DNA from: Felis catus
Taxonomy: Eukaryota
Length of the DNA stretch: 64,000 nucleotides
Reading direction: 5' to 3'
Assembly: GCF_018350175.1 (NCBI RefSeq)
Contig: NC_058368.1
Location: 92,134,001 to 92,198,000, forward strand
Made by a program: the position numbers and the translations under genes. The notes beneath the pieces were generated by a model. It searched no databases, was not told the DNA's origin, and saw nothing but the letters and a program-made list of their open reading frames with translations. Shown here in pieces: positions 18,572-64,000 of the stretch. Position 1 is the stretch's first letter; each line of letters starts with the position of its first letter.

Positions 18572-19451
18572 ATGATGAAATGAAGGAATTCACCCCATAA
18601 GAAAGATCTGGAAGAAATGACAGTCAGGGACTTAATCAACCCAGATACAAGCAAGATGTCTGAACTAGAATTTAGAATCACGATAATAAGAATACTAGCT
18701 GGGGTTGAAAATAGATTAGAATCCCTCTCTGTGTAGATAAAAGAAATAAAAGCCAGTCAGGATGAAATAAAAAATACTATAGCTGAGCTACAATTTCGAA
18801 TGGATGCCATGGTGGCAAAGATGGATGAGGCAGAGCAGTAAATCAGTGATATGGAGGACAAACTTATGGAGAATAAAGAAGCAGAAAAAAGAGGGAGATT
18901 AAGGCAAAAGAGCACAATTTAAGAATTAGAGAAATCAGTGACTCATTAAAAAGGAACAACATCAGAATCATAGGGACCCCAGAAGATGAAGAGAGAGAAA
19001 AAGGGGTAGAAGGATTATGTGAGCAAATCATAGTGGAAAACTTTCCTAACCTGGGGAAAGACACAGACATCAAAATCCAGGAAGCACAGAGGACTCCCAT
19101 AAGATTCAACAAAATCCAACCATCAACAAGGCATATCATAGTCAAATTCACAAAATACTCAGGCAAGGAAAGAATCATGAAAGCACTAAGGGAAAAAAGT
19201 TCTTAACCTCCAAGGGAAGACAGATCAAGTTTGTGGCAGACCTATTCACAGAAACTTGGCAGGCCAGAAGGGAGTGGCAGGAGATATTCGATGTGCTGAA
19301 TCAGAAAAATATGCAGCCAAGAGTTCTTTATACAGCAAGGCTGCCATTCAAAATAGAAGGAGATATTAAAAGTTTCCCAGACAAACAAAAATTAAAGGAG
19401 TTCGTGACCACTAAACCAGCCCTGCAAGAAATTTTAAGGGGGACTCTCTGA
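18572..19451 (+). pseudogene. L1 ORF1 remnant (in-frame stops and frameshifts)
   Basis: Begins ATG ATG AAA TGA; the C-terminal fragment ...FPDKQKLKEFVTTKPALQEILRGTL* is typical of L1 ORF1p. Confidence 0.85.
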
Positions 19452-19550
19452 GGGGAGAAAAGATGGGAAAAAAAAAAAAAGACCAAAAGCAACAAAAACT
19501 AGAAAGGACCAGAGAACACCACCAGAAACTCCAACTCTGCAAGAAACATA

Positions 19551-22500
19551 ATGGCAATAAACTCATATCTTTCAGTACTCACTCTAAATGTCAATGGACT
19601 AAATGTTCCAATCAAAAGACATAGGGTAACAGAATGGATAAGAAAACAAGATCCATCTGTCTGCTGTTTACAAGAGACCCACTTTAGACCTAAAGACACC
19701 TTCAGACTGAAAGTAAGGGGATGGAGAACCATCTATCATGCTAATGGTCAACAAAAGAAAGCCAGAGTAGCCATACTTATATCAGACAATCTACAGTTCA
19801 AAATAAAGACTGTAACAAGAGATGAAGAAGGGCATTATATCATAATTAAGGGTCTATCCACCAAGAAGACCTAACAGTTGTAAACATTTCTGCTCCAAAC
19901 GTGGTAGCACCCAAATATATAAATTAATTAATCACAAACCCATTGATAATAATACCATCATAGTAGGGGGCTTCAACACCCCACTTACAACAATGGACAG
20001 ATACTCTAAACAGAAAACAACAAGGAAACAATGGCTTTGAATGACACACTGGACCAGATGGACTTAACAGATACATTCAGAACATTTCATCCTAAAGCTT
20101 CTAAACAATATACATTCTTCTCCAGTGCACATGGAATGTTCTCCAGAATAGATCACATACTGGGACACAAATCAGCCCTCAACAAGTACAAAAAGATCAA
20201 GATCATACCGTGCATATTTTCAGACCACAACACTATGAAACTCAAAATCAACCACAAGAAAAAATTTGGAAAGATAAGAAATACTTGGAGACTAAAGAAC
20301 ATCCTACTAAGGAATGAATGGGCTAACCAAGAAGTTAAAGAAGAAATTAAAAAGTACATAGAAGCCAATGAAAATAATAACACCACAGCCCAAAACCTCT
20401 GGGACACAGCAAAGGCAGTTATAAGAGGGAGTTATATAGCAATCCAGGCCTTCCTAAAGAAGGAAGAAAGGTCTCAGATACACAACCTAACCCTACACCT
20501 TAAAGAGATGGAAAAATAACAGCAAATAAAACCAAAACCAGCAGAAGACAGGAAATAAAAAAGATTAGAGCAGAAATAAATGCTATCAAAACCAAAAAAG
20601 CAGTAGAACAAATCAATGAAACCAGAAGCTGGTTCTTTGAAAGAATTAACAAAATTGAAAAGCCACTAGCCAGTTTGATCAAAAAGAAAAAGGAAAGGAC
20701 CCAAATAAATAAAGTCAAGAATGAAAGAGGAGAGATCACAACTAACGCAGCAGAAATAAAAACAATAATAAGAGAATATTATGAGCAATTATACACCAAT
20801 AAAATGGGCAATCTGGAAGAAATGGACAAATTCCTAGAAACATATAAACTACCAAAACTGAAACAGGAAGAAATAGAAAATTTGAACAGACCCATAACTA
20901 GTAAAGAAATTGAATTAGTAATAAAAAATCTCCCCCAAAAAGAGTCCAGAGGCAGATGGCTTTCCAGGGGAGTTCTACCAAACATTTAAGGAAGCGTTAA
21001 CAAGTCTCTTGACATGTAACCTATTCTCTTGAAGCTGTTCCAAAAAATAGAAATGGAAGGAAAACTTCCAAACTCTTTCTATGAAGCCAGCATTACCTTG
21101 ATTCCAAAACCAGACAGAGACCCCACTGAAAAGGAGAACTATAGACCAATTTCCCTGATGAACATGGATGCAAAAATCCTCAACAAGATATTAGCCAATC
21201 GGATCCAATAATACATTAAAAAAATTATTTACCATGACCAAGTGGATTTACCTGGGATGCAGGGCTGGTTTAATATCTGCAAAACAATCAGTGTGATTCA
21301 TCACATCAATAAAAGAAAGGACAAGAACCATATGATCCTCTCAATAGATGCAGAGAAAGCATTTGACAAAATACAGCATCCTTTCTTGATAAAAACCCTT
21401 AAGAAAGTAGGGATATAAGGATCATACCTCAAGATCATAAAAGCCATATATAAACGACCCAACGCCAATATCATCCTCAATGGGAAAACATCCTTAAAGG
21501 GGAAACTTTTCCCTCTAAGGTCAGGAACAAGACAGGGATGTCCACTCTCGCCACTGTTATTCAACATAGTATTGGAAGTCTTAGCCTCTGCAATCAGACA
21601 ACACAAAGAAATAAAAGGCATCCAAATCAGCCAGGAGGCGGTCAAACTTTCACTCTTCGCAGATGACATGATACTCTATATGGAAAACTCAAAAGATTCC
21701 ACCAAAAAACTGCTAGAACTGATCCATGAATTCAGCAAAGTGGCAGGGTATAAAATCAATGTACAGAAATCGGTTGCATTCCTATACACCAACAATGAAG
21801 CGACAGAAAGAGAAATCAAGGAATCGATCACATTTGCAATTGCACCAAAACCCATAAAATACCTAGGAATAAATTTAACCAAAGAGTTGAAAAATCTATA
21901 CACTGAAAACTATAGAAAGCTTATGAAATAAATTGAAGAAGACACAAAAAAATGAAAAAAGATTCCATATTCCTTGATAGGAAGAACAAATATTGTTAAA
22001 ATGTCAATACTACCCAAAGCAATCTACATATTTGATGCAATACCTATCAAAATAACACCAGTATTCTTCACAGAGCTAGAACAAGCAATCCTAAAATTTG
22101 TATGGAACCAGAAAAGACCCCGAATAGCCAAAGCAATCTTGAAAAAGAAACCGAACCAGAAAGCATCACAATCCCGGACTTCAAGCTATACTACAAAGCT
22201 TTAATCATCAAGACAATATGGTACTGGCACAAGAACAGACACTCAGATCAATGGAACAGAATAGAGAACCCAGAAATGGACCCACAAACCTAAGATTAAC
22301 TAATCTTTCACAAAGCAGGAGAGAATATTCAATGGAATAAAGACAGTCTCTTCAGCAAATGGTGCTGGGGAAATTGGACACCAACATGCAGAAAAATGAA
22401 CCTGGACCACTTTCTTACACCATACACAAAAATAAACTCAAAATGGATGAAAGACCTCAATGTAAGACAGGAAGCCATCAAAATCATCGAGGAGAAAGCA

Positions 22501-23378
22501 GGCAAAACCTCTTTGACCTCGGCCGCACAACTTCTTACTCAACATGTCTCTGGAGGCAAGGGAAACCAAAGCAAAAATGAACTATTGGGACCTCATCAAA
22601 ATAAAAAGCTTCTGCACAGCAAAGGAAACAATCAGCAAAATGAAAAGGCAAGTGACGGAATGGGAGAAGATAGTTGTAAACGACATATCAGATAAAGGGT
22701 TAGTATCCAAAATCTATAAAGAACTTATCAAACTCAATATCCAAAAAACAACTAATCCAGTGAAGAAATGTGCAAAAGACATGAATAGACACTTCTCCAA
22801 AGAAGACAACATCCAGATGGCCAACCAACACATGAAAAAATGCTCAACATCACTTATCATCTGGGAAACACAAATCAAAACCACAATGACATACCACCTC
22901 ACACCTGTTAGAATGGCTCACATTAACAACTCAGACAACAACAGATGTTGGCGAGGATGCGGAGAAAGAGGATCTCTTTTGCATTGCTGGTGGGAATGCA
23001 AGCTGGTGCATCCACTCTGGAAAACAGGATGGAGGTTCCTCAAAAAACAAAAAAATAGAACTACCCTACGACCCAGCAACTGCACCGCACGGCATTTATC
23101 CAAGGGATACAGGTGTGCTGTTTCGAAGGGGCACATGCACCCCAATGTTTATAGCAGTACTATCAACACTAGACAAAGTATGGAAAGAGCCCAAATGTCC
23201 ATCGATGGATGACTGGATAAAGAAGATGTGGTAGGTATATACAATGGAGTATTACTTGGCAATCAAAAAGAATGAAATCTTGCCATTTGCAACTATGTGG
23301 ATGGAACTGGAGGGTATTATGCTAAGTGAAATTAGTCAGTCAGAGAAAGACAAATATCATATGACCTCACTCATATAA
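19551..23378 (+). pseudogene. L1 ORF2 remnant (endonuclease and reverse transcriptase), broken by many stops and frameshifts
   Basis: Fragments with [28 protein letters not shown] and LFADDMILY motifs split over at least 8 short ORFs. Confidence 0.92.
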
Positions 23379-25852: not shown

Positions 25853-26316
25853 AGAAATCTGTTGTATTTCTATACACCAAAAATGAAGCAGCAGACACAA
25901 AAATTAAGAAAACAATCCCATTTACAAGTACACCAAAAGTAATAAGGTACCTAGGAATAAATCTAACCAAAGATATGAAAGACCCATACTCTGAAAACTA
26001 TCAAAAACTGATTAAAGAAATTGAAGATGATGCAAAGAAATGGAAAGATACTCCATGCTGATGGATTGGAAGAACAAATATTGTTACAATGTCCATACTA
26101 CCCGAAGCAATCTACACATTTAAAGCAATCCCTATCAAAACACCAATAGCAGTTTTCACAGAACTAGAAAGAACAAACAGCCCTAAAATTTGTACAGAAC
26201 CACAAAAGACCCTGAAGGGCCAAAGCAATCTTGAAAAAGAAAAGCAAAACTGGAGGCATCATAATTCTGGACCTCAAGCTATATTACAAAGCTGTAGTCA
26301 TCAAAACAGTATGGTA

Positions 26317-26533
26317 GGGGCGCCTGGGTGGCGCAGTCGGTTAAGCGTCCGACTTCAGCCAGGTCACGATCTCACGGTCCGTGAGTTCGAGCCCCGTGTC
26401 GGGCTCTGGGCTGATGGCTCAGAGCCTGGAGCCTGTTTCCGATTCTGTGTCTCCCTCTCTCTCTGCCCCTCCCCCGTTCATGCTCTGTCTTTCTCTGTCC
26501 CAAAAATAAATAAATGTTGAAAAAAAAATATTT
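26317..26533 (+). mobile_element. Young felid CAN-SINE nested in L1
   Basis: ggggcgcctgggtggcgcagtcgg head; TSD aaaacagtatggta at 26303-26316 and 26534-26547. Confidence 0.92.
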
Positions 26534-27929
26534 AAAACAGTATGGTAGCAGCCACTCTGGAAAACAGGATGGAATTTCCTCAAAAAGTTAAAAATAGACC
26601 TACCCTACAATCCAGCAATTGCACTACTAGGTATTTAGGCAGAGGCTACAAAAATACACCTGTGAAGGGATATGTCCACCCGAATGTTTATAGCAGCATT
26701 ATCAACAATAGCCAAAGTGTGGAGAGAACCCAAATGTCCATCACGTCCATTGATGAATGGATAAAGAAGATGCGGTAGATACATACAATGGAATGTTTTT
26801 CGCCATAAAAAAGGAATAAAACCTTGCCATTTGCAACAACATGGATGGACCTAGAGAGTATAATGCTAAGGCAAAAAATACTGTATGATTTCACTCATAT
26901 GTGGAATTTAAGGAACAAAACAGATGAGCAAAGGGGGAAAAACACACAGAGAAATAAAACACGATAACAGAGTCTTACCTAGAGAGAACAAACTGATGGT
27001 TACCAGAAGGGAGTGAAGTGGAGGTTACCAGAAATGGAGGGGATGGGGGGAATAGGTGATGGGGACCAAGGAGGGCTCTTGTCGTGATGAGCACCGGGTG
27101 AATAAAATAAACCTTTGAAAAAACATTGTGGGCTCTGCTTCCTTATTATTTATTCCCTGATAATTCAGCTTAGCCTGATTCAAGTTTCTTTCATTATGCT
27201 CTCAACCTCCAAATGCAAAAAACAACAAAAACCACCATGACCCCAACAACAACAACAACAACAACAACAAATAGAGGAAAACATTTTCCCAACAGAGGCA
27301 GGAAAATTGGCTTTCCAATCAAATAAACTAAAGTTGAATTCAATTCAGGCCCTCACTCTCAGGGTAGATAACTGAAGCAAGTCACTTAACTATAGTCTCA
27401 GTTTTTCCTATAATGTCTAATTTAGGAAGGAAGGAAATACAGATTTAATAATGCCATTATCTTACAATATCTAGCTTATGGTGTTCTACTTATTAAACTA
27501 GACGGGATGCATACAAACAGGCTTAATAGTGACTATAGCTACTGTTTATTGAGCATTACCACATGCCGGACATTGACATGGGTCTCCATGCAGCGTTCGT
27601 AATACTCAAAGCCTTGTTGCAAAGCAGGTAATGCATTTTTGAGATGAGGAAAATCTCCATTTTGCAGATGGAGATTAAGCAATTCACCCAAGGTCAGAAA
27701 GCCTGCAGTGTGCATTAAAGTCCCCTACATATGAGAGATGGCCATCCTCAATGATATTCCTGCAATTCGTAGAGAACTTTTTGAACAGGACCCATCTGGT
27801 TTTACTAGCCACCTTGGGTTAATCCTTGTATGACAAGTGAGTCTGATAATTTATAAATATCTGGAAAGGGGTGAACTTAATTTGGATAGACATTATTTTT
27901 TTTAAGTGTCAAAAAAAAAAAAAAAGAAA

Positions 27930-29300
27930 AAAAGAAAACAGTACAGAATCACCCAACAATAGCAGAGTATATATTCTTCTCAAGTACATGTGGAAACTTC
28001 TCTGGAGGAGACCGTGTGCGAGGCCAGTATACTGGAAAGCACCTTCTCTGACCACTATAGAGGGAAATTAGAAATTAATAACAGAAGGGGATTTGGAGAT
28101 TTCACAAAGTAAATAACACATGCTTATATAACCAATTAGCCAGAGAAGAAATCACAAGAGAAACTAGAACACAGTTTGAGATGAATGGAAGAGAAAATGT
28201 AACATGCCAACATTTATGGTTGTAGCCAACACACAGCTCCAGGGAAACCTATAGCTGTAAACAATAAATATTAATAAAGGAAAATATTTCAAATCAATAA
28301 CCTAACTTTGTACATGAAGACACTGGAAAAAGAAGAGTGAGATATCCAAAGTGAGCAGGAGGAAGGAGATAATTAGGATTAGAGTCAAAATTAAGGATAT
28401 AAAGAATAGAAAAATTGAGAACATCAATGGAGCCAAACCTTGGTTCTTTGAAAGGACTACCAAAATTATCAAACCTTTAGACTGATTGGGAGAAGGGGTT
28501 GAGGGGGCTTTAAGAGAGAAAGAAGGAGAGGGGCACCTGGGTGGCTCAGTGGGTTATGCATCTGACCCTTGATTTCGGCTCAGTCATGATCTTGCGGTTG
28601 GTGAGTTCGAGCCCTGCATCCGGCTCTGTGCTGACAGCTCAGAGCCTGCTTGGGATCCTCTCTCTCTCTCTCTCTGCCCCTTCCCTGCTCGCGTGTGCTC
28701 ACTCTTTCTCTCAAAATAAATAAATAAAAACTTAAAAAAAAGAAATTAAAGACAATATGGACAAATGGAAACATACCCTGTATTTGTGGATTGAATGCTC
28801 AATATCGTTAAGATGGCAGTTATCCAAATTGACATACAGAATCAGTGTTACTCCTATCAAAATTCCACTTCTTCCCCCAGGCCTCTGAAATTGATAAACT
28901 GATCCTAGAATCCGCATGGATGCCAGGGACCCAAAATAGCTAAAACAATCTTGCAAAGAACACAGCTGGAGGACTCACACTTCCCAATTTTAAAACGTAC
29001 TATAAAGCTACAATAATCAGAACAGAACAGCACTGGCATGAGGACAGACATATAGAATTGGGAGTCCAGAAATAGAGTCTTACCTCTAGGGTCAATTGAT
29101 TTTCAACAGTTGTCAGCCAAGACAATTAAATGGTGGAAAGAATAGTCTTTTCAACACACCGACGCTGGGAAAACTGGATGTCCGTATGCAAAAGAATGAC
29201 GTTGGACCCCTACCTCAGACCATTATGCAAAAATTAAAATGGACCGCAGACCTTAATTTAAGGGCAAAAATGATAAAACTCTTAAAAGAAAACCAAGGTG
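27930..29300 (+). mobile_element. Old L1 ORF2 fragments
   Basis: Degenerate A-rich ORF2-like sequence interrupted by a SINE at ~28530-28740. Confidence 0.65.
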
Positions 29301-34880: not shown

Positions 34881-35090
34881 GCTAGCAGCGTCCCAGGCAC
34901 CCTGTGTGTGTCCTGTCCTGGCTCAAGCCCACCTCTGGGGGCTGGGCTGCTGCAAATGTGCGGCTTGCGGTCCGCTGCTTCAGGCCACCCCACATCCTAG
35001 GGGAGGTGGGCCCCGGGGCCTGAGGCTTTATCCAGAGCCTGAGTAAGCAGTGTGGCCTGTGGGCACAGGCTTCCTTACTGTCCAGCTGGC

Positions 35091-44157
<9,067 letters not shown>

Positions 44158-47543: not shown

Positions 47544-47693
47544 CTACACCAGCTTCTTCGCTTCAAAGAAGCTCTTGAGGTGTCGCATCTGCCAGACGCC
47601 GATGGCTACGAGGATGAGGGTCTGCAGAATGGACCACCACAGCACCCGCTGGTTGGTGCTCTCGCTGGTCTGCCGGAAACGCTCCTCTCGCCA
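47544..47693 (-). CDS. TMED9: TMED9 coding exon 5 (terminal)
   Basis: Encodes [49 protein letters not shown] then TAG. Confidence 0.95.
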
Positions 47694-49664
47694 CTGTGGG
47701 AGGGGAGAGCGGAAGAGGAGCTTAAGTTTGCTGGGCACCACCTGGCGCCACTCTAACTGCTGGGTTCCCTTTGCAGAGGATGCCCCAGAATCAAGGAGCT
47801 ATGCCCAGGTTCCAATCAAATGTCTGCAAAGAGCCAGAGACCCCACCTGGGGACTGTATTCATCCTCCCCAGCCAGATGACCTCCAGGAACCCACTCATT
47901 TAAGTCTGTTTGCTTGGGGGTGCCTGGCTGGCTCAGCTGGTAGAGCATGCAACTCTTGGGGTTGAAGTTCCACATTGGGCATGCAGCCTACTTCAAACCA
48001 ACCAACCAACAACCTCTGTCTGCTCATGTGTCAGGTACAGTCCTCCCCGGTCCTCTCCTAGAGCCAGTGGGGGGAGGGAGGGCGGGGGGGAGGGGAGGTG
48101 AAGTGCCAGTAGTATCACCCCATCAGACAGAGCTGCCCTATAGCACTCAGGAGTGCACGTGCTCTAAGCTTTCTGCCCAGGTCTTCCCCAACTGCTCCTC
48201 GAGGATTGTGGGCACAAGTTGCAAACTGGTGGCCCAGTGGCTGGATGTGTTTTGCCAATAGTTAAAACCTGGTAAAAATTCACATCAAAACACTTGGATC
48301 TCTAGCTCCTCTTAAAAGACAGGGTAGCGTATCTATCTGCAAGGCTACCCTGGGTTGACAATTAACCGAGGCCACTGAGGATTAGACACACAACAGTCCT
48401 TATGGTCACAGATTCATTCATGGTACCGCCTGGCTCCTGGACACAATTGAGTTTGAAATAGCTGGTCCTGGAAGCACCTGGAGCCATGGAAATAACACCC
48501 AAGGTATTAATATCAATTCCCGCTCTGTCACTGTGTACATGTAACTGGGATTTAGAGCAATGATAGCCTCTCAAGAGCCTGTCTCCTTGGTTACACACTG
48601 GAGTTAGTGATCCCCACCCCACCTTTTAGACTTGCAAAGCGGCACAGTTAAGTCCCCTGGCTTTCATAATGAATCTGACACACATGCCACTCCTGGCTGA
48701 GCCAGGGGAAGGCTTCTGGGAAGAAGCCCACCCAGGAGCTCCTGGCCCAACCACATACCCGTTGGTAGTTCTGCTCTTTCTGGATCTGCTCCACTTGCTC
48801 CACCAGCTGTCTCACTCGTAGCTGCAGCTCACTCAACTTGTCTTTGGCGGCAATTTCTGCGTAGTCGTTGGCGTGTTCACCCACCTGGATGTCCAGGTGA
48901 ACTCTCTGGGGACGGACAAGGGAGAGAAAAAGAAATCGGGCAGCCCTGCTCCATCTTCCTGCCAGGCACTGACAGCTGGTCCCCCTACCTTCCTTCATTT
49001 GTGCATTTCGTCCAGTGCTGAGGCCTCCACAGTGTCCAGCCCTATGGGGCTCTAGGCAAACAGGCATGAATAAACTTGGCTGACACTTGGACCAAGGCAC
49101 ATACAAGGAGTTCAGGGACTGTGCCCAGATGTTCAGCGAAAACCCAAAATTATTAGGAGACACAAAATCCGCCACACTCATCTCACACCCAAAGCACTGC
49201 CAGTCTCCAGGCCCCACCAGGGTTTAGAGGTTGAAAGCTACGAGTCCCATGTGGGTCCACTCACCAGCATGCCTCCAGCAAAAAGGGAGAACTTGGTGGA
49301 ATTGGAGTGAAGACAGATCTGGTGTTCGCCGGGGGTATGGGAGGTGAAAGTGAACCTGCCTTCAGAGCCATACTGCCGGGCCAGGATCACCTGGAGACAA
49401 AAGCCTTCAGTGAGTGTTATAGAAAGGATGGGGCTGGAAGGAAAGAAGTCTTAAGGCTCTCTGAGCCTCAAAAGTTAGCCAACAGAGACATAGGCACCCC
49501 ACACACTAAAAGCTCCAAAGCTGCTCGGCGGTAGTTGCCAAAGCTTAGCTGAGAACTTCTGGGGGCAGGGGTGAAGAATCTAAAATGAAGCTGATGTGGG
49601 TCTGCGGTTGGAAAGGGCTCTTTATTCAGAGCTCCTGCCATTTCAACTCTTTTTTGTGTGTGGT

Positions 49665-49695
<31 letters not shown>

Positions 49696-50619
49696 GTGAC
49701 AATGATTTTTTTTTTTTCTTTTGCTTTCCTTTAATATCCTTATCTGGTGAAATTAACAGCTGCTTCTTCGTTTTGGAAAGCACTCTGTCCTGTGAAACCT
49801 TAAAGTCTGGATGCCACAGCGTTAGAGTTGACAAAATTCTTTGACTGCCAGCACCACAATTAAGGCACCAACCACACCTGTAAGATAGGTGAGTTTCCAT
49901 TTCGCAGACCAGGAAACCGGCTCAGGGAAGCTCAGTGACTTGGCAGAGTCACGCAGCAGTCGGTAAGAGGTTGAGAGGAGCCGCTAGCACTGCAGCAGCC
50001 CAAGCTTGGCCTAGAGCGCAAAGCCGGGCGCGATCTTCTCACAACACCCAACTGTCTTCAGCAGTTCAGCAGATGCGGCAACTGGGAGGGGAAGTACCAG
50101 CACCTGCCTGGTCTGGCGCTTAAGCGCAGGGCGGAGGGCTCCGCGGGCTTTGGGGCCGGCTCACCTTGTCCTCTGGGTCCTTCACCTCCACGAACATGCC
50201 GAGCCCGGGGGTGGCCGGCTGGTACTCCTCCCGCTGCTTGTCATACAGCTGCGTCCGGTAGTTTCCTGGAGGGAAGTGGGGCGACTCCAGGTCAGATGAG
50301 CGCGAGGTGGCGCGGAGTCGGCCCACGCCAGCACGCGGCGAGACCGGCTGCTCCCCTTTCTGGAAGAGGTGACTCTCCCGCACCCCCCGCCCCTAGACCA
50401 AGGTCTTGTTCCAAACTCTCCCCCTCCGCCCGCACCTATAACCATGGTCTCGTCCGGGATCTCCTCAATAAAGCACTTCTTTTCGGTCTCCCCGATGTGG
50501 AAGTAAAGCGCGCCTCCGCGGGCCACAAAACACAGAAGCAGCACGAGGGCCCGAATCACCCTTCCCAGTCCCCCTCCGGGCCGGGGCCCGACGACCCTCA
50601 CGCCCTGCTCCGCAGCCAT
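47544..50619 (-). CDS. TMED9: Transmembrane emp24 domain-containing protein 9 (p24alpha2/gp25L2), 235 aa; join(50436..50619,50165..50265,49265..49390,48759..48905,47544..47693)
   Basis: Five exons (184+101+126+147+150 = 708 nt), all GT-AG. Signal peptide, GOLD domain ([18 protein letters not shown]...[11 protein letters not shown]), coiled coil, TM segment and FFEAKKLV tail. Adjacent to B4GALT7, as I recall for other mammals. Confidence 0.97.
48759..48905 (-). CDS. TMED9: TMED9 coding exon 4
   Basis: Encodes [49 protein letters not shown]; ag/gt flanks. Confidence 0.95.
49265..49390 (-). CDS. TMED9: TMED9 coding exon 3
   Basis: Encodes [42 protein letters not shown]; ag/gt flanks. Confidence 0.95.
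50165..50265 (-). CDS. TMED9: TMED9 coding exon 2
   Basis: Encodes [34 protein letters not shown]; ag/gt flanks. Confidence 0.95.
50436..50619 (-). CDS. TMED9: TMED9 coding exon 1
   Basis: gcaagATGG start; donor ATAG|gtgcgg. Confidence 0.95.
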
Positions 50620-50991
50620 CTTGCTCCACCTGCCGGCGCAGTCGCAGCCCGCGGCGCCACGTAGCCCTGCCGCCGCCGCGGGGCCTGCCGGGACAGCGAG
50701 TTCGACTGGCTGGACTACAAATCCCTAGATACCCCGCGTCCGCGGCGAGGCAGTACCCGATTGGGGAGCAGCTTTTGCCTGCTTCCGAATTACGGCCCAA
50801 GAATTGAAACCTTTTTTTTGTTAATCGCCCTGGCGGCGGGGCGACTACTAGTGTTTATAAAATTTTTACAGATGCTCCAAGTAACGCAGTTTGGTTGCGG
50901 TCGCAGTGAATAACGAGCAGATACAGGATTGAAACCGAGGATCCCTGACTTTCCTCGGGATTGCATCCGACACTCTGGGCTTTCTTCTATT

Positions 50992-54195: not shown

Positions 54196-55215
54196 TCAAG
54201 AGAATGAGAAGCCAAGCCATAAATTGGGAGAAAATCTCTGTAAAGGATGTATATCAGAAATAATTGCTACCCAAAATATACAAAGAACAGACAAAAAACA
54301 ACAAAATATACAAAGAACCCTTAAAACTCCACAGTAAGAAATGAATAACCCAATGAAGAAATGAGCAAGAGATCTGAACAGACTGTTCAGCAAAGAAGAT
54401 CATACATGGCAAAAAAAAAGCATATGAAAACCTGGTTATGATCATATGTCATTAGGGAAATGCAAATTGAAACAATGAGATACCACCAGGGACCTATTAG
54501 AATGATAAAAATCCAAACACTGACAACCAACACCAAATGCTGGCAAGGTTATGGTGCAACAGGGACTCTTATTCATTGCTGGTGAGAATGCAAAATGTTA
54601 CAGCCACTTTGGATGATAGTTTGATAGTTTCTTATAAGACTAAACATACTCTTAGCATGTAATCCAGCAATAGGGCTCCTTGGTATTTACCCAAATAAAT
54701 TGAAAAGTTATGTCCACACAAAATCTTGCATAAAGATATTTGTAGCAGCTTTATTTATACTTGCCCAAACTTGAAAGCAACCAAGATGTCCTTCAGTAAG
54801 TGAGTGTACAAATAAACTGTGGTACATACAGATAATGGAATATTACTTAGTGCCAAAAAGAAATGGGCTATCAAGCCATGAAAAGACATGGAGAAACCTT
54901 ACATGCAGATTGCTAAGTGAAAGAAGCCAATCCAAAAAACGTTGTTACTGTGTGATTCCAACCATGCAACATTCTAGAAAAGGCAAAAGATCAGTGGTTG
55001 CCAGGAAGGGAGGAGGAGGGATGAATAGGCAGAATGCAGAGTATTCTTAGGGCAATGAAACTATTCTATATGACATTATAATGGTAGATACATGTCCAAA
55101 ACCATAGAATGTAAAACACCAAGATGGACTCCCAATGTAAACTAAGGACTTTGGGTGAAAATAATGTGTCAATGTAGGTTCATTGATTGTAACAAATGTA
55201 CTACTTTGGTGCAGG
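54196..55215 (+). mobile_element. Old L1 (L1MC-like) 3' region between TMED9 and its paralog
   Basis: Degenerate ORF2 end and 3' UTR motifs (MEYYLVPKRNGLSSHEKTW-like). Confidence 0.7.
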
Positions 55216-55311: not shown

Positions 55312-56669
55312 AGCAGGGGAGGGTCAGAGAGAGAGAGGGAGAGAGAATCCCGAGAAGGATCCACACTGTCAGCACAGAGCCCAATGCAGGGCTTCATCCC
55401 ACAAATTGTGGGATCGTGACCTGAGTCAAAATCAAGAGTTGGATGATTAACCAACTGAGCCACACCAGTGCCCCTATAGTTTTGATTTTTTGACTAAGGC
55501 ATACAATGTCTTGAAATCAGGTAGACTGATTTCTGCCACTTTATTCTTCTTCACGAATGTTTTACTTATGCTAGTTCCTTTGCCTCTCCATGTAAATTTT
55601 AGAATAATCTTGTCTATGTTAAAAAAAAACAACAACTCCTGGGGCGCCTGGGTGGCTCAGTCAGTTGAGTGTCCGACTTCAGCTCAGGTCATGATCTTGT
55701 GGTCTGTGGGTTCGAGCCCCACATCGGGCTCTGTGCTGACAGCACAGAGCCTGGAGCATGCTTCAGATTCTGTCTCCCTCTCTCTCTCTGTCCCTCCCCT
55801 GCTCATGCTCTTTCTCTCTGTCAAAAATAAATTGAAAAAATTAAAATAAAACAAAACTCCTGGTGGGACTTTGACATGAATTGTGTTAAACTTGGGTAAT
55901 AGTTTGGAAAGAATTGCCATATTTACTATGTTGAGTGTTCTGATCTATGAACACAGTATGTCTCTGCATTTATTTGGTCTTCTTTGACTTTTTCTTCATC
56001 AGAATTTTGTAATTTTCAGCAAACAGATTTTATGCGTATTTTGTTAAGATTTCACGTGAGTAATTCATTTTCTATGAACTGACTGTAAATCATATTGTTT
56101 TTAATTTTGGTTTCCTTATATTTATTGTTAGTATGTAGACATGTGATTGATTTGTACATGTTGCTCTTATGTTATACAAACTTGCTGAATTCATTTATTA
56201 GTTCTAGGAAATCTATGGATTTCTTAGACTTTTCTAAATATATAATCATGTCATCTACAAATAGGGACATTTTTATTTCTTCCTTTCCCATCCGCATGCC
56301 TTTTTTTTTCTTAGCCTTCTTACAGTTACTAGATCTTCTGATACAATGTTAAATAAGAGTGGTGAGAGGGATACCTGGGTGGCCCAGTCGGTTAAGAATC
56401 TGACTCTTGATTTCGGCTCAGGTCATGATCTCACAGTTCGTGGGATCAAGCCCCACATCAGGCTCTGAGCTGACAATATGGAGCCTACTTGGGATTCTCT
56501 CTGTCCCTCTCCCCTCTCTCAAAATACATAAAATAAAATTTTAAAAAGTTTTTTTATTATGAATTATATCAAATCTACCAGTGTTTGAGTGGAAATTAAG
56601 TCTTTATGTAGTTTTATATGCTGTAATATGTCTTCAAATAAATCTCTCCTATTAAAAAAAAAACCCATC

Positions 56670-59260: not shown

Positions 59261-59288
59261 CTCAAAAAAAAAAACTTATTAAAAAAAA

Positions 59289-59331
59289 TCATCATCATCA
59301 TCACCACCACCACCACCACCACCACCACCAC
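59289..59331 (+). repeat. (TCA)n(CCA)n trinucleotide microsatellite
   Basis: Directly visible. Confidence 0.9.
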
Positions 59332-60069
59332 ACGTTGCAGAATAAACTAATGAGCATCTCTTAGCACCACAGGCACTAGGTGGTGGAAGACTTCATCCCA
59401 CTACCTGGGTTGAACTACATCTTTCTACTGACATGTTTGGGTCTACACTATTCTCACAGGGCATTGTGGGCTTTGGAATTCTCTAGATTTGTTTTTTCTC
59501 CGCTCCCATTTTGTCATGTTGGCTCCACTCTCCCACCCCTTTTGGTTGTGTACTGCTATCCTTTGCCAGTGGCTTTCCTGCTATCTTCTCTCCCCTCCAG
59601 GCTCACCCACAACCTCTTCCTGGTTCCTAGTGCAGACGGAAGTACACTGGATGAAGGGCTCCCCTATTATATGGGCCTGGCACCTCCTGTGCCCTTAGAT
59701 TCGGCCCAATTACCTTCACCCTCAAAGTTCCTGTAACTTTTCTTCCCCTAGTTCCTTAACTGGCCTACTGGCTGCTAGGCAATCCTAGGCCCCCCTGCCT
59801 AAATTGTTCTTGTCTCTCGCTGCTCAGGGAGATCTTAATCATCCTTCAAGGCTTGAGTCAAATCTACCGCTTCCACGAAAGCCGCGACATTTCCCTCTCC
59901 CCTTCCTGAATTGCTGCTTCAGCCTCTAAACCCCACAGGGCTTCTCTTCTCATTCCATGTCACCATGTCACCCCCTCTCCCCTAATCAATCCTAAACTCT
60001 TCTAGGTAGAAGCCCAGGTCATAAACGTCCCGTTATCCCCATCCTTTTAGCACACATCTGGGGTGGCTG

Positions 60070-60610
60070 CGCCGCATGTTGCAGAGGGCAACCCCCCGCC
60101 CCTGAAGCTGTTACCCCAATCGGCAAGATGGGCTAACAGCAGCTACGCCTCCCCGGGTTTCTGCGTGGATTAAGAGATGCCCTGTGGCGGAAAGCGCTCC
60201 AGAGCGTTCCTCCAGGTTGTTGGGGGCGGGGGCGGGGGGGGGGTGTCTCGCTTGGCCCCTCAGCAGCATGGGTCGGCGGGAACGCGCCGGGGGCGGGGCC
60301 ACGCGAGGGCTCCCGGGAGTTGTAGTCCGTGCGCGAGTTTGCAGTCTCCGCAGGCTCCGCGCGGAGACCGGAGGACTCGCCTGGGAAGGTGGCGGGGGCC
60401 TGCGGGGCGCGAGGAGCTGGGCCCCGGGCTGGCCCCGGGCGGGGATGGGGCACAGCGCGGGCAACCGGTATGGCCCTGCCGCTGCTGCTGGGGCAGCTGC
60501 TGGCGCTGATGGGCCCCGGGGACGCGTTCTACCTCGAGGTCCGCGAGCTGGAGGAGAAGTGCTTCATCCAGGAGATCCCCGATGGTACCGTGGTCATAGG
60601 TGCGCGTCTC
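60070..60610 (+). promoter_or_regulatory. CpG-island promoter of the TMED9-like gene: CCAAT (60116-60120), G-rich tract and GC boxes (60222-60300), ZNF143/SBS-type motif (60315-60328)
   Basis: CpG-dense; GGGGCGGGGC boxes; GGGAGTTGTAGTCC is the reverse complement of GGACTACAACTCCC. Confidence 0.75.
60470..60599 (+). CDS. TMED9-like paralog coding exon 1 (could extend upstream to an in-frame GTG at 60389)
   Basis: ggtATGG start; encodes MALPLLL...[24 protein letters not shown]; donor ATAG|gtgcgc. Confidence 0.85.
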
Positions 60611-62510
60611 GGCCAGTCCTGGCCTTGCCCTTCCTGCACCTAGAGTCCTGAGAGGGGAGGGAAATGGGTGGCACCAGCTCAGGCCCGTATCTTCCCTCCC
60701 CTGCCAGGGGTAGGGCTCAGAGGGATGGGTGGACAGCAGTCTGGCCAAGGCATCCTTTCTCTTGCCTGTGCCGGGGATGGGGGCCCTAGGAGGCTAGTCT
60801 GAACCAGACTGGAATGATGGCAGAGAAGTGGGGCTGGAGAAGGGAGGAGAGGCCGAGGGCCGTGGTCGGTCTCCTCAGACTCAAGATCTTCCTGTTCCTC
60901 CCCTGACCACTGGGACTCCATCATGGGTATGGATGGGATTGCACCTCCGTTGCCTCTCCATTAGGTAACTACAAGACGGAGCTATACGACCCTGCTATGG
61001 AAAAGTACCAGCCCTCCCCCCAGTGGATCAATTTATTCGTGTTTGTGAAGGACCCGGAGAACAAGGTGAGGTAGGCCTTTACTCCTTGCAGCCTTCCACC
61101 GGGCCCCCACCCCCAGGCCCCCAGAGTCAATGTGTAGCCTTCTCTAGTCCTTCATTTCTCACAGAAGGATCTGTCTTCTCACAGGCAGGATAGCTTAAGG
61201 AGGGCCGTGCTCTTTGCAAACTGTACTCTGTATTGGCAATGCTGGGATCTGAGAATTTCTGGCCAAACTGATGTCCTTTCTTTCACACTGTCCCCTCTGG
61301 CCTGTGGGGGTGTAGACCTGGGATACCCCTACAATTCTTCTGGAAGCAGGTGTATGGCTAACATCTCTGTGCTCACTGGAGGCTGCTTCCTCTAGAACCT
61401 TCTGGCCCGTCAGTACGGCCCTCAGGGCAGCTTCACCTTCACCTCCCAGTCTCCAGGAGAGCACCAGATCTGCCTCCACCTTGAGTCTATCCGGTTCGCC
61501 CTCTTCTATGATGGCAAGCTGGTGAGTGTGGCAGGTGGGAGGTCCACCATCCCCAGGGGCTCAATTTCTCTGCCTCTAGAGTGAGAAGGGTGCAGTGGGT
61601 GGTGCCTGTTGAGTAGGGCTGGGACTTTACATGAAGTAAGCACATGGGGAACAGATCTTGAGGATAAAAGGAGACCTTGGGAGGGAGTTACCGTGACTTA
61701 AAATCCTCCCTCGGCTCCCTGCCCCATCCCTAGGATACAGACTGAGTTTCACCATGTGAAATTCAGAGCTGTTCTGCTGATTGCTTCAGGCCTCTCCATT
61801 GTCATCTCCCAATGCAGGACTTCTAGTAAACTGCCTCAGAGTCTTACCTCTGTTTCCTTTGCACATGTTGTCCCTATCCTTGGTGTTTTGAATATACAAC
61901 TCCACACAAGCCGAGTCCCGATCTAGTGTTTGGACGCCCAGAGCAAGGCCAGTCAACAAGTTGGTGTGTGAGGAACAGTGTCAGGCCCAGGCTGGGATGC
62001 AGAAGCTAGATTTCCAGCAGGTCCATGGAGCTAAGCTCCCTGACTCCCACCTTTGGTTCCCCCGTTCCAGGCCATTCACTTGGATATGCAGTTGGGTGAA
62101 CGCAGCAACGATTACGTGGAGTTTGCAGCCAAGGACAAGCTGACCCAGCTGCATCTGCGTGTCCAGCAGCTTGTGGAGCAGGTGGAGTTGATCCAGAAGG
62201 AGCAGGAATACCAGAGGGTGAGGGGCTGGGTTGGGCTGGCACAGTTGGGACGGAGGATGTGTCACCTCCTGGGAAGGGAAGCTTCCCGCTCTTCCCCCAG
62301 AGTGGGTGGGGGTGCAATTCAGTTCCGGACGCGTATCTACTCCCTTCTCCCCTCCCACAGTGGCGAGAGGAGCGCTTCCGGCAGACCAGCGAGAGCACCA
62401 ACCAGCGGGTGCTGTGGTGGTCCATTCTGCAGACCTTCATCCTTGTGGCCACAGGTGTCTGGCAGATGCAGCACCTCAAGAGTTTCTTTAAAGCCAAGAA
62501 GCTGGTGTAG
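60470..62510 (+). CDS. TMED9-like p24alpha paralog, 217 aa; join(60470..60599,60965..61065,61396..61521,62071..62217,62361..62510)
   Basis: Five exons (130+101+126+147+150 = 654 nt) with GT-AG introns and no stops or frameshifts. Exons 2-5 are the same length and phase as TMED9. Signal peptide [19 protein letters not shown], both GOLD cysteines (KCFIQ, QICLH), coiled coil, TM segment and FFKAKKLV tail. About 71% identical to TMED9 over the mature protein (140/198, hand count). Confidence 0.92.
60965..61065 (+). CDS. TMED9-like paralog coding exon 2
   Basis: Acceptor ccattag|G, donor AAG|gtgagg; encodes [34 protein letters not shown]. Confidence 0.92.
61396..61521 (+). CDS. TMED9-like paralog coding exon 3
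   Basis: Acceptor ttcctctag|A, donor CTG|gtgagt; encodes [42 protein letters not shown]. Confidence 0.92.
62071..62217 (+). CDS. TMED9-like paralog coding exon 4
   Basis: Acceptor cgttccag|G, donor AGG|gtgagg; encodes [49 protein letters not shown]. Confidence 0.92.
62361..62510 (+). CDS. TMED9-like paralog coding exon 5 (terminal)
   Basis: Acceptor cctcccacag|T; encodes [49 protein letters not shown] then TAG. Confidence 0.93.
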
Positions 62511-62824
62511 GTGGGCCCCAGAAACCCAGCCCCAACTCATTCCCCTTCTGTTCACTGATGGGAAGTGGCCTGGCTTGGTCTATTTCCTGGTTCCCAACCC
62601 CCCAACCCTGCAGGGCTTCCTTGCTTACTGGCAGGGGGACAGAGGACTTCTTTGAACTGGTTTCTCAGCCAGCACTTGGGAAAGGATGGGTTTCCCACTA
62701 AACGCTTGGTCGGGGAGCTGAAGGATTCTGTGTGGCTCTGTGCTGCTGAGGAGGGTGACGGGACCCCATCCCCAGGCTAAACCAGATGGATGAACTATCC
62801 CAAGATGGAGAATTAAGAGTGAAT

Positions 62825-62830
62825 TATAAA
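62825..62830 (+). terminator. Candidate poly(A) signal of the TMED9-like gene (variant TATAAA); a canonical AATAAA lies at 63583-63588
   Basis: Hexamer ~315 nt after the stop codon, followed by a GT/T-rich stretch at ~62885-62897. Confidence 0.35.
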
Positions 62831-64000
62831 CTGCAGACTCTCTGACCTAAGCATTTATTGCCTCCTACTCTGCAATTCATTCCGGTGTTTTGTTTCTAAT
62901 CAGATATTGATAGGTGTGTGAGGCCCCACATGTACTGGTGGGGGCTGATCCCAAAATGGATGGGGTGAAGGAAGCTTGTACTCCAAAAGCCTTAGCAACT
63001 TGTGGAGTCCTTTCCAGAAAAGTCCAATTTGGGTCCATCTTATGGGTAACCTGAGTGCTTGTGCGGATCCTCTGTCTCTTTCTGGGGTTGGGTCGAGTTC
63101 ATGTGCTATTCTAGCCACTTGGACTGCTGGGTTCTTCCAGGAGGTCAGGTGGGCACCTCTGTCTTCCTACTATTTTCTGCCAATCTGTGTCTCTCTTTGT
63201 GATGTCACTGGTTGATTTTTTTCAGGAGATTCTTTTTCTCTTTTCTTTCCTTCTTCCCCCTCCTTCCCTCCTTCCTTTCTCTCTTTGTTCCTTTTTCTTT
63301 CTTCCTCTTTCTTCCCTCCTTACTTCCTCTTTCCCTCCCTCTCTCTTCCTTCCTTTCTTTTTCTTAAACAAGATTGGAAGTAATTGTTTCCATTATGTTC
63401 AGCATTCCTGTGACTCAGCCTTCACATGTGCACACAGGTATAGATAACCAGGCATCTATGTACCCACTGCATCTGCCTGATCTAGCCCACGTTTTACCAA
63501 GCCCTCTGCTGGTTGCTCTGTTGGAATATAGTCAGCGCTCATATGAATCTGATGTTTTCTGTCATAAGGAAGCTCACTCATCAATAAAATCAAGTCCAAA
63601 TCATCAAGGCCAAGGGAGACTCCCCATTAGGAGGGGGAAGTTGTGACAAACCCTGCTCTTGGCCCCTGGGACAGACACAACCTCCCCTAAGATACTCTTG
63701 AGGGACGCTGCAAGCCTTGGAGATATTGCTCATTTGTGGGTGTGGTCATGACTGGCCTCTGGAAAGTATGAATGGACTGAACTGAAGGCTGAGGGAAACC
63801 ACTAGAGAGTAACCAGAGTATGTGATCATAGGGTCCATTACCCTTACTTGAAGCTGGTGCATATGTGTGTGTGGGGGGAGGGGGGTGCTCTGCTGTCTGC
63901 CACAGGAGAAGCAGAGTGATCCAGAAAGGCACACTCTTGCACACGGAGCCTCTGGTCTGACACCAAATGAGGCAGGGCTTGAACAACAGCTAAGGGTGAT

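Follow-up and report, generated by a model that had tools for sequence, protein, structure and literature searches.

A probable fourth p24alpha gene beside TMED9 in the cat genome, with a GOLD domain that changed early and was then conserved

Results

A TMED9 paralog lies head-to-head with TMED9

The p24 gene TMED9 lies on the minus strand of a 64,000-nucleotide (nt) stretch of the Felis catus genome (NCBI RefSeq assembly GCF_018350175.1, contig NC_058368.1, positions 92,134,001 to 92,198,000 of the forward strand; hereafter the window). Head-to-head with it, in divergent orientation, lies a second gene of the same kind, which we call the paralog (Table 1); 9.85 kb separate the two ATGs. The paralog has five coding exons on the plus strand, an open reading frame (ORF) of 217 amino acids (aa), and GT-AG boundaries at every intron. 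Its mature part begins at 60527, within exon 1, and there exon lengths and phases equal those of TMED9. The DNA of the paralog was read in the window, and other species are represented by protein models. Its exon 4 residues agree with those of the RefSeq Felis catus isoform models, and the window carries repeats of the Can-SINE type, as befits a felid.

The region around the first exon resembles a promoter, with an observed/expected CpG ratio of 0.77 and a GC fraction of 0.68 at 60000-60600. An ACTACA-type pattern, which we take to belong to the ZNF143/THAP11 class, has only two matches in the window, one ahead of the paralog and the other upstream of TMED9 at 50714-50725.

Table 1. Positions, in the window, of the paralog, its parent gene and associated features
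Feature	Position	Strand	Remarks
ACTACA-type promoter motif	60315-60326	-	In CpG island; orientation relative to gene as at TMED9
Candidate GTG start	60389-60391	+	A at -3, G at +4; in frame; would open a 46-codon leader/signal peptide
Out-of-frame ATG ORF	60445-60968	+	G at -3, G at +4; 52 codons, overlapping; stops at exon 2 start
Paralog coding exon 1	60470-60599	+	From carnivore ATG: 19-aa signal peptide and GOLD strands b1-b2
Paralog exon 2	60965-61065	+	GOLD; carries seven-residue replacement at TMED9 79-85
Paralog exon 3	61396-61521	+	GOLD; second Cys retained, N125 sequon gone
Paralog exon 4	62071-62217	+	Final GOLD strand, linker, coiled coil
Paralog exon 5	62361-62510	+	Coiled-coil end, transmembrane helix, tail with FF and KKxx, stop
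Gene-conversion tract	62346-62435, versus TMED9 47708-47619	+, versus -	1 mismatch in 90 nt
TMED9 (parent gene), 235 aa	50619-47544	-	Exons 50619-50436, 50265-50165, 49390-49265, 48905-48759, 47693-47544

The paralog differs from TMED9 across its GOLD domain

Aligned without gaps, the mature paralog and TMED9 are identical at 140 of 198 residues. A sequence-only reading of this DNA had given identities of 14/24, 19/34, 27/42, 35/49 and 45/49 for exons 1 to 5 and had named three changed GOLD segments (ATPGLGM to SPQWINL, KQRE to PAME and FAGGM to FYDGK). Our recomputed alignment returned exactly these counts, and all three segment changes are present. The same reading described the divergence as domain-specific. 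This holds in that the five exons are heterogeneous (χ2 p = 0.002), but the heterogeneity is due to exon 5; exons 1-4 show no gradient in pairwise identity (p = 0.48; GOLD versus exon 4, p = 0.21).

The proposal that changes cluster in particular GOLD segments did not survive permutation. When the 40 GOLD changes were permuted 20,000 times over its 100 sites, neither the longest run of seven (p = 0.07) nor the best 10-residue window (p = 0.31) nor the number of runs (p = 0.30) was significant, and the changes are spread across the whole domain. They include 20 of the 65 GOLD sites that are invariant in TMED9 and TMED4 from fish to mammals. A family-wide gradient of conservation from the N to the C terminus was rejected as a cause, given that TMED9 and TMED4 share 81-84 of 100 GOLD residues and 83-84 of 98 residues in exons 4 and 5.

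The ratio of nonsynonymous to synonymous divergence (omega) between paralog and TMED9 is 0.23 overall, 0.21 in exons 1-4 (interval 0.10-0.35) and 0.29 in the GOLD domain (bootstrap 0.14-0.51). The paralog is not itself the TMED9 orthologue, since it carries 58 differences, among them E52Q and N125E, and true TMED9 lies at 47544-50619; nor is it TMED4. The sequence-only reading had stated that mature TMED9 of the window matches human TMED9. It equals squirrel-monkey, deer-mouse and bat models residue for residue and matches the TMED9 chain in the PDB.

An early burst of GOLD change was followed by constraint

Relative-rate counts bear out the earlier suggestion that the divergence lies on the paralog branch. 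With wombat TMED9 as outgroup the count was 58:0. Tajima counts with other outgroups were 55:0 (Pogona), 52:2 (Xenopus), 55:2 (a cichlid) and 45:6 (bird TMED4). Polarized against eight non-placental TMED9s, 56 of the 58 sites changed on the paralog branch, two were unclear and none changed on the TMED9 branch. The full-length placental rows compared all have the same mature TMED9, and its identity to the wombat protein is 97-99%.

Most of the GOLD change is old. At 36 of its 40 differences, rabbit and at least 21 of 23 laurasiatherian rows already depart from the TMED9 residue; the corresponding figures are 9/14 in exon 4 and 0/4 in exon 5. Pika was excluded from these counts, since its model reads exon 1 in a different frame. 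Per site, old changes are more frequent in GOLD (36/100) than in exon 4 (9/49; p = 0.036). On a fixed species topology, the stem branch before the rabbit split measures 0.67 in GOLD, 0.23 in exon 4 and 0.03 in exon 5. The laurasiatherian crown shows the reverse order, with lengths of 0.23, 0.76 and 0.87, respectively, without the shrew tip (0.43, 1.14 and 0.93 with it).

Since then, the new GOLD domain has hardly changed. The window GOLD sequence is identical at 100/100 positions to otter, bear, panda, pangolin, horse and rhino models, at 95-99/100 to other non-shrew laurasiatherians, at 82-83 to shrews and at 79 to rabbit. Among the 21 non-shrew laurasiatherian rows, mean pairwise identity is 96.4% for GOLD and 89.9% for exons 4 and 5, and variable columns number 19/100 and 36/98, respectively (p = 0.007). 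The replacement at 79-85 is invariant in 23/23 laurasiatherian rows, rabbit and pika. Shrew and lagomorph orthologues (P0058, P0059, P0060, P0053) evolve several times faster, with the 79-85 loop unchanged.

An old burst followed by a nearly frozen GOLD domain excludes a decaying copy, and this sequence of events is the best evidence for an altered role. The stem GOLD omega must exceed the pairwise value of 0.29. Random drift ahead of pseudogenization, which had been named as one of the outcomes that would overturn neofunctionalization, was ruled out by the intact ORF, the omega of 0.23 and the near-invariance of GOLD in orthologues. Likewise, a pseudogene or decaying duplicate was rejected on the unbroken ORF, the omega of 0.21 in exons 1-4 and the 100/100 GOLD match with six orthologues from three orders.

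Gene conversion accounts for part of the conservation in exon 5

A tract with a single mismatch to TMED9 covers the last 15 nt of intron 4 and the first 75 nt of exon 5. The 15 intronic bases are identical in the two genes; the other acceptors share 2, 2 and 4 terminal bases. Synonymous divergence (dS) falls from 1.16 in exons 1-4 to 0.30 in exon 5 (38/95 versus 6/40 codons, p = 0.005). Only the 5' half of exon 5 shows this deficit: its dS is 0.06, and its 22 degenerate codons include a single difference (P = 0.0002 given the rate in exons 1-4). The 3' half, which encodes the transmembrane (TM) helix and tail, has a dS of 0.70, a nonsynonymous divergence (dN) of 0.07 and 20/24 identical residues, compared with 25/25 in the converted half. 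The exonic part of the tract could alternatively reflect strong synonymous constraint; the intron match is not easily explained in this way.

Because its 5' half is a conversion tract, the 92% identity of exon 5 overstates constraint. The claim that anchor and sorting tail are preserved is weakened by this. The unconverted half is constrained and keeps FF and KKxx; the tail itself carries the changes R223Q and E230K. Conversion was also raised as an explanation of the entire gradient. The tract explains the 5' half of exon 5; it does not account for exon 4 or the 3' half. Exon 5 is TMED9-like in lagomorphs.

The predicted protein keeps the p24 scaffold and alters functional residues

PF01105 matches exons 3, 4 and 5 (4 and 5 above the gathering score), and exons 1 and 2 alone give no match. 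The leopard orthologue matched PDB TMED9 with E = 1e-96. An AlphaFold model of this orthologue (P0068, two residues off the window protein; 35-row alignment) keeps the GOLD b-sandwich and a long helix at 134-216, with a pLDDT (predicted local distance difference test score) of 75.6 and a predicted template modelling score (pTM) of 0.46. The top nine Foldseek matches of the model are p24 GOLD domains. The equivalents of the GOLD cysteines C49 and C121 are present in 24/24 rows, and the disulfide is predicted. We called the signal peptide by eye from its hydrophobic stretch; coiled coil, TM helix and tail are colinear with TMED9, and FF and KKLV occur in 25/25 aligned orthologue tails. By sequence and predicted structure the paralog is a p24alpha protein, and it groups with TMED9 and TMED4 in the tree.

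TMED9 binds cargo at the open b1/b2 edge, and E52R strongly lowers its binding of MUC1-fs; R223E and Q177A weaken its oligomers, and R223E also weakens COPI binding (PMC11414720). In the paralog, seven of the first 10 mature residues differ from TMED9, and E52 is Q in 23/23 laurasiatherian rows and in rabbit. Of the residue sets defined in PMC11414720, the paralog keeps the coiled-coil trimer core (4/4), the hydrogen-bond set (14/14) and the TM leucines (2/2). It keeps 10/14 of the inter-trimer set; the four changes include Q177L. R223, a phosphatidylinositol phosphate (PIP) site, is Q in 16/23 rows.

The sole luminal sequon of TMED9, N125, is lost, and none of 19 paralog rows has a luminal sequon. 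TMED9 is N-glycosylated, and its glycan state was without effect on one tested function (PMC12052135). E230K (62484-62510) is present in 23/23 laurasiatherian rows and not in lagomorphs, and the tail then resembles the TMED10 tail of the PDB alignment, a possible convergence in coat binding.

A GTG in a conserved K-V-A-G motif aligns with the start codon of TMED9

The annotated ATG of the paralog (60470) is found in carnivores only. Leu stands at this position in 11 of the 12 lineages tabulated, with Met in the window; it is found in horse, rhino, pig, camel, whales, ruminants, Hipposideros, desman and rabbit. The ungapped homologue of TMED9's ATG is a GTG 81 bases upstream, which stands ten codons ahead of a shared G-P-R, as the TMED9 ATG does.

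The residues K-V-A-G occur at the place of this GTG in 43 of the 49 retrieved models that reach it, the models not being independent of one another. The exceptions are two mustelids and Bos taurus (frameshifts), narwhal (spliced across), Sorex araneus (shifted, together with a shorter leader) and oryx (V to A). In a column count, K, V, A and G each scored 12/12; this count was made without blue whale, shrew and two broken caprine/oryx rows, and its rows were picked after the motif was seen. With one row taken per lineage, 12 of 14 intact lineages have a leader of 46 codons; that of blue whale has 45 and that of shrew 41. Non-carnivore rows have no Met ahead of the hydrophobic region (h-region) of the signal peptide, and five UniRef models open at the Val of the GTG. 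Its third base, G, was deduced from other-frame models in cattle, mustelids and pangolin.

A Trp codon 19 positions past the GTG (12/12) contains an out-of-frame ATG at 60445, which places an AUG 56 nt downstream of the GUG. Models open at its homologue in pika, whales, deer, goat, cattle, mustelids, pangolins and Rhinolophus. In cattle, mustelids, pangolins and Rhinolophus an indel places this ATG in frame; those of Bos taurus and Rhinolophus lie in a G run and may be assembly errors. The pangolin leader (P0315, P0316; protein only) seems to be frame-shifted twice upstream of the AUG that is now in frame, as would follow from a lapse of constraint on frame once that AUG took over. A GC-rich hairpin is possible just past the GTG, as computed without a shuffle control in a region that is itself GC-rich. 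Two other ATGs are unlikely starts: the in-frame one at 60509 lies inside the h-region, and the out-of-frame one at 60268 lies upstream of the promoter motif.

Taken together, we lean towards initiation of the paralog at GUG 60389. A doubtful but possible alternative is that translation begins at the Leu codon at -19 (CUG, AUG in carnivores) or in an upstream exon, and that K-V-A-G reflects a promoter element at the transcription start. The -19 Leu is retained in 11/12 rows, no near-cognate start is more efficient than CUG (PMC9082881), and the leader region is a CpG-island promoter. However, this alternative leaves aside the alignment of the GTG, with A at -3 and G at +4, to TMED9's ATG and the constant leader length, which differs by whole codons in the two lineages outside the 12 of 14. 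In addition, the -19 position is downstream of the conserved out-of-frame AUG, and the sole V to A change is in oryx, whose model is broken. TMED9's ATG lies in what we take to be a YY1-like CAAGATGGC motif (window 50600-50625 versus 60380-60400). The ATG to GTG change in the paralog removes the core of this motif.

Orthologues of the paralog were found in some placental lineages

A protein search with exon 3 gave 53 matches among 56 candidates, and one with the GOLD region of the otter orthologue gave 59 among 89. Orthologues were found in carnivores, pangolins, horses, rhino, pigs, camelids, ruminants, hippo, whales, rhinolophoid bats, moles, shrews, rabbit and pikas, as automatic RefSeq and UniRef 'TMED9-like' models in dozens of species. 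No primate, rodent, afrotherian, xenarthran or marsupial match was named among the matches listed, which cover annotated proteins that share exact words with the query. The rabbit orthologue was retrieved in the same searches despite 79% identity. The result is suggestive of absence from these five groups.

Sheep, goat, takin and oryx protein models lack or replace the start of exon 3. Such a disturbance is seen in the oryx, sheep, ibex, argali and takin models (P0054, P0062, P0065, P0067, P0084), and the oryx model has a changed tail and start motif as well. This suggests loss of the paralog in Caprinae and Hippotraginae.

Two residues otherwise found only in placental TMED9 are present in the paralog (E93 in 18/19 rows and A99 in 16/19), and a 32-row tree built without constraints splits paralogs plus placental TMED9 from all other rows with support of 96/94. 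On these grounds the duplication most likely took place on the placental stem, before the split of rabbit from laurasiatherians. That split dates to about 90-100 million years ago.

A paralog-specific pattern had no matches in metagenome contigs. A protein search for orthologous DNA gave 16 loci, all nearer to or equally far from TMED9, so that identity pointed to no mammalian orthologue among them. The ESM Atlas returned generic PF01105 clusters only.

Splice variants, naming and neighbouring features

Two Logan contig proteins (P0093, P0335) read through the exon junctions without introns, which points to an origin in spliced RNA; P0093 has TMED9-like ends and may be an assembly chimera. These two and the recurring RefSeq splice variants are the sole indications of expression. 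Of 24 sequencing runs listed, 19 contain the stretch, two of them recorded as RNA; as introns are covered too, they do not count as evidence of expression. In-frame RefSeq splice variants recur across felids and pinnipeds, one with exon 3 skipped (175 aa, X3) and one with an internal exon 4 donor (205 aa, X2). The 205-aa models are explained by a donor near 62182. Exon 4 is skipped in lion and Hipposideros models. Twenty-four retrieved models start at the exon 2 Met, without a signal peptide, and others add upstream exons. Paralog models are named plain TMED9 in horse (P0031), pig (P0041/P0110), cattle (P0082), Rhinolophus (P0071) and rabbit (P0279), a trap for orthology and expression studies.

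Downstream of the paralog stop (62511-63600), the first AATAAA is at 63583, with variants at 62811 and 62825. A triplet run, (CAT)n(CAC)n, lies about 1 kb upstream of the paralog at 59288-59331. Broken ORF1/ORF2 pieces at about 19000-23300, 26000-29300 and 54200-55200 are presumably from long interspersed nuclear element 1 (LINE-1). Two marginal Rfam tRNA matches (16709-16781 and 55646-55730) are probably the tRNA-derived heads of Can-SINEs (carnivore short interspersed elements), since the second sits in a SINE. Downstream of TMED9, at about 35000-44157 on the minus strand, lies a gene that we take, from its sequence and the gene order of cattle (PMC7601430), to be B4GALT7. The cattle gene list has two unnamed LOC genes between FAM193B and TMED9, one of which may be the paralog.

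Discussion

We consider it probable that the paralog is a functional fourth p24alpha gene, formed as an inverted tandem duplicate of TMED9, with a re-specified GOLD domain, probably different cargo or partners and a low dose. Under this reading, TMED9 would have duplicated on the placental stem. The sequences show a burst of substitution concentrated in GOLD before the rabbit/laurasiatherian split, which gave way to strong purifying selection on the new domain. The product would fold as a type I membrane protein of the GOLD-coiled coil-TM kind, join p24 partners through its intact coiled-coil core and cycle by its FF and KKxx tail, to judge from the residues kept. Its luminal surface would be re-specified, with the b1/b2 edge rewritten, the 79-85 loop replaced and the N-glycan site gone, and a surface so altered makes a cargo or partner set different from that of TMED9 most likely, rather than a plain backup. 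The dose is probably low because most lineages have as their only homologous start a GUG, with a stronger out-of-frame AUG downstream of it; some would later have gained an in-frame AUG. The neofunctionalization first proposed from the sequence is supported in part, by the change on the paralog branch, the old GOLD burst and the present constraint on GOLD; the 92% identity of exon 5, in part a product of conversion, lends it less weight than first supposed.

Several observations weigh against this reading. The burst and freeze alone fit positive selection or relaxation followed by entrenchment, and relaxation could account for the stem burst. GOLD changes fall preferentially at positions variable in the family (20/35 versus 20/65, p = 0.018). 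Shrews and lagomorphs change faster (GOLD 79-83/100). The interface at 187-211 lies partly in the converted tract and so gives no independent evidence of selection, and E52Q is milder than the published E52R (PMC11414720). For the leader, the evidence is drawn from translated gene models, in which open frames are favoured. Two or three sites and a long branch are what place the paralog beside placental TMED9. Moreover, the paralog looks dispensable, given the taxa without a match, the broken caprine and oryx models and the fast-changing shrews and lagomorphs.

A bolder version, which we hold to be rather unlikely as a whole, is that the paralog is a cargo receptor absent from human and mouse that acquired a new cargo or partner by positive selection on the placental stem and is dosed by competition of its GUG with the out-of-frame AUG. 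The GUG start would have been conserved since the boreoeutherian ancestor, with the receptor made only under relaxed start-codon stringency. At least five independent flips to AUG-driven expression would have followed, in carnivores, again in mustelids, and in pangolins, Rhinolophus and Bos taurus.

It is unlikely, in our view, that the paralog drifted while redundant, was kept for dosage or tissue expression and now does TMED9's job with a drifted surface. The GOLD changes do favour family-variable sites and are unclustered, the pairwise GOLD omega of 0.29 becomes about 0.6 if synonymous change is split evenly over two branches, and there are several apparent gene losses. However, constraint on GOLD now exceeds that on the coiled coil and TM helix, the reverse of what is expected of a structural filler. 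The 20 replaced sites that had been invariant from fish to mammals were then fixed, and TMED9 itself tolerates almost no change.

Less probable still is a decoy or modulator subunit that keeps assembly and retrieval, has lost b2-edge cargo binding and PIP-driven higher oligomers, and tunes TMED9 complexes. E52Q, R223Q and the four changed inter-trimer residues of 14, including Q177L, beside an intact trimer core fit such a role (functions per PMC11414720), and a weak start codon would suit a sub-stoichiometric modulator. A mere decoy should not need a GOLD surface frozen at 100/100 across cat, horse and pangolin, and R223 and Q177 vary among orthologues. Finally, it is very improbable that all exons diverged alike and TMED9 overwrote the 3' end to produce the whole gradient, as the clear tract at 62346-62435, the similar pairwise identity of exons 1-4 and the TMED9-like exon 5 of lagomorphs might suggest, given that exon 4 has a high dS (1.70, interval 0.70 upward), a stem length one third of that of GOLD and fewer old changes, and that the 3' half of exon 5 is constrained and not recently converted.

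If the preferred reading of a re-specified fourth p24alpha gene is right, it bears on the choice of cargo by p24 GOLD domains, which is an open question to which the invariant placental TMED9 offers no natural variation. The paralog amounts to a natural swap of 40 GOLD sites, in place for tens of millions of years, on a coiled-coil/TM scaffold that has scarcely altered, and chimeras with TMED9 would map cargo specificity directly. It also alters E52 and R223, residues tied to the trapping of misfolded cargo by TMED9. The paralog is present in dog, pig and rabbit, which serve as models for disease and drug testing, and was not found among human or mouse proteins. The GUG start, if true, would add a conserved non-AUG-initiated secretory protein beyond the reach of human-centred surveys and would explain the inconsistent gene models and the mislabelling as TMED9.

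The paralog is known as automatic database models; its tempo of change and probable GUG start are the parts that we did not find in print. It was described nowhere in the papers searched, a search that did not extend to supplements or to a 2009 survey of vertebrate p24 proteins. That survey, reportedly by Strating et al. (Mol Biol Evol), could mention it. The available parts of PMC3681554, PMC4710233 and PMC13404660 had no bearing on the paralog.

Among known systems, TMED9 (p24alpha2, p25) is the closest. It shares with the paralog the exon structure, GOLD disulfide, coiled-coil core, FF and KKxx tail and a homologous promoter motif. It differs at 40 of 100 GOLD positions and in having E52, the N125 sequon, R223, E230 and an ATG where the paralog has GTG; moreover, its mature part is invariant in the placental rows compared, whereas the paralog appears limited to some placental lineages. 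Reviews give the mammalian p24alpha subfamily three genes, TMED9, TMED4 and TMED11 (PMC7045115, PMC9888432). TMED4 (p24alpha3) is older than placentals, has 81-84% GOLD identity to TMED9 and shows no domain gradient; the paralog, at 60%, is further from TMED9 though much younger. TMED11 (p24alpha1, gp25L) is listed for mouse, where the paralog gave no match. Indirect evidence speaks against the paralog being TMED11, as it adjoins TMED9, shares placental-only residues with it and has no rodent match.

For the start codon, the nearest parallels are EIF4G2, whose GUG has a purine at -3, G at +4 and a downstream out-of-frame AUG ORF as in the paralog (PMC9082881), and HELZ2, whose GUG has the same context, aligns with the AUG of its orthologue and gives about 20% of AUG output (PMC10516660). 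Compared with these two genes, GUG use in the paralog is deduced from conservation. The paralog further differs from them in that its GUG would open a signal peptide in a duplicate gene and that several lineages appear to have regained an in-frame AUG.

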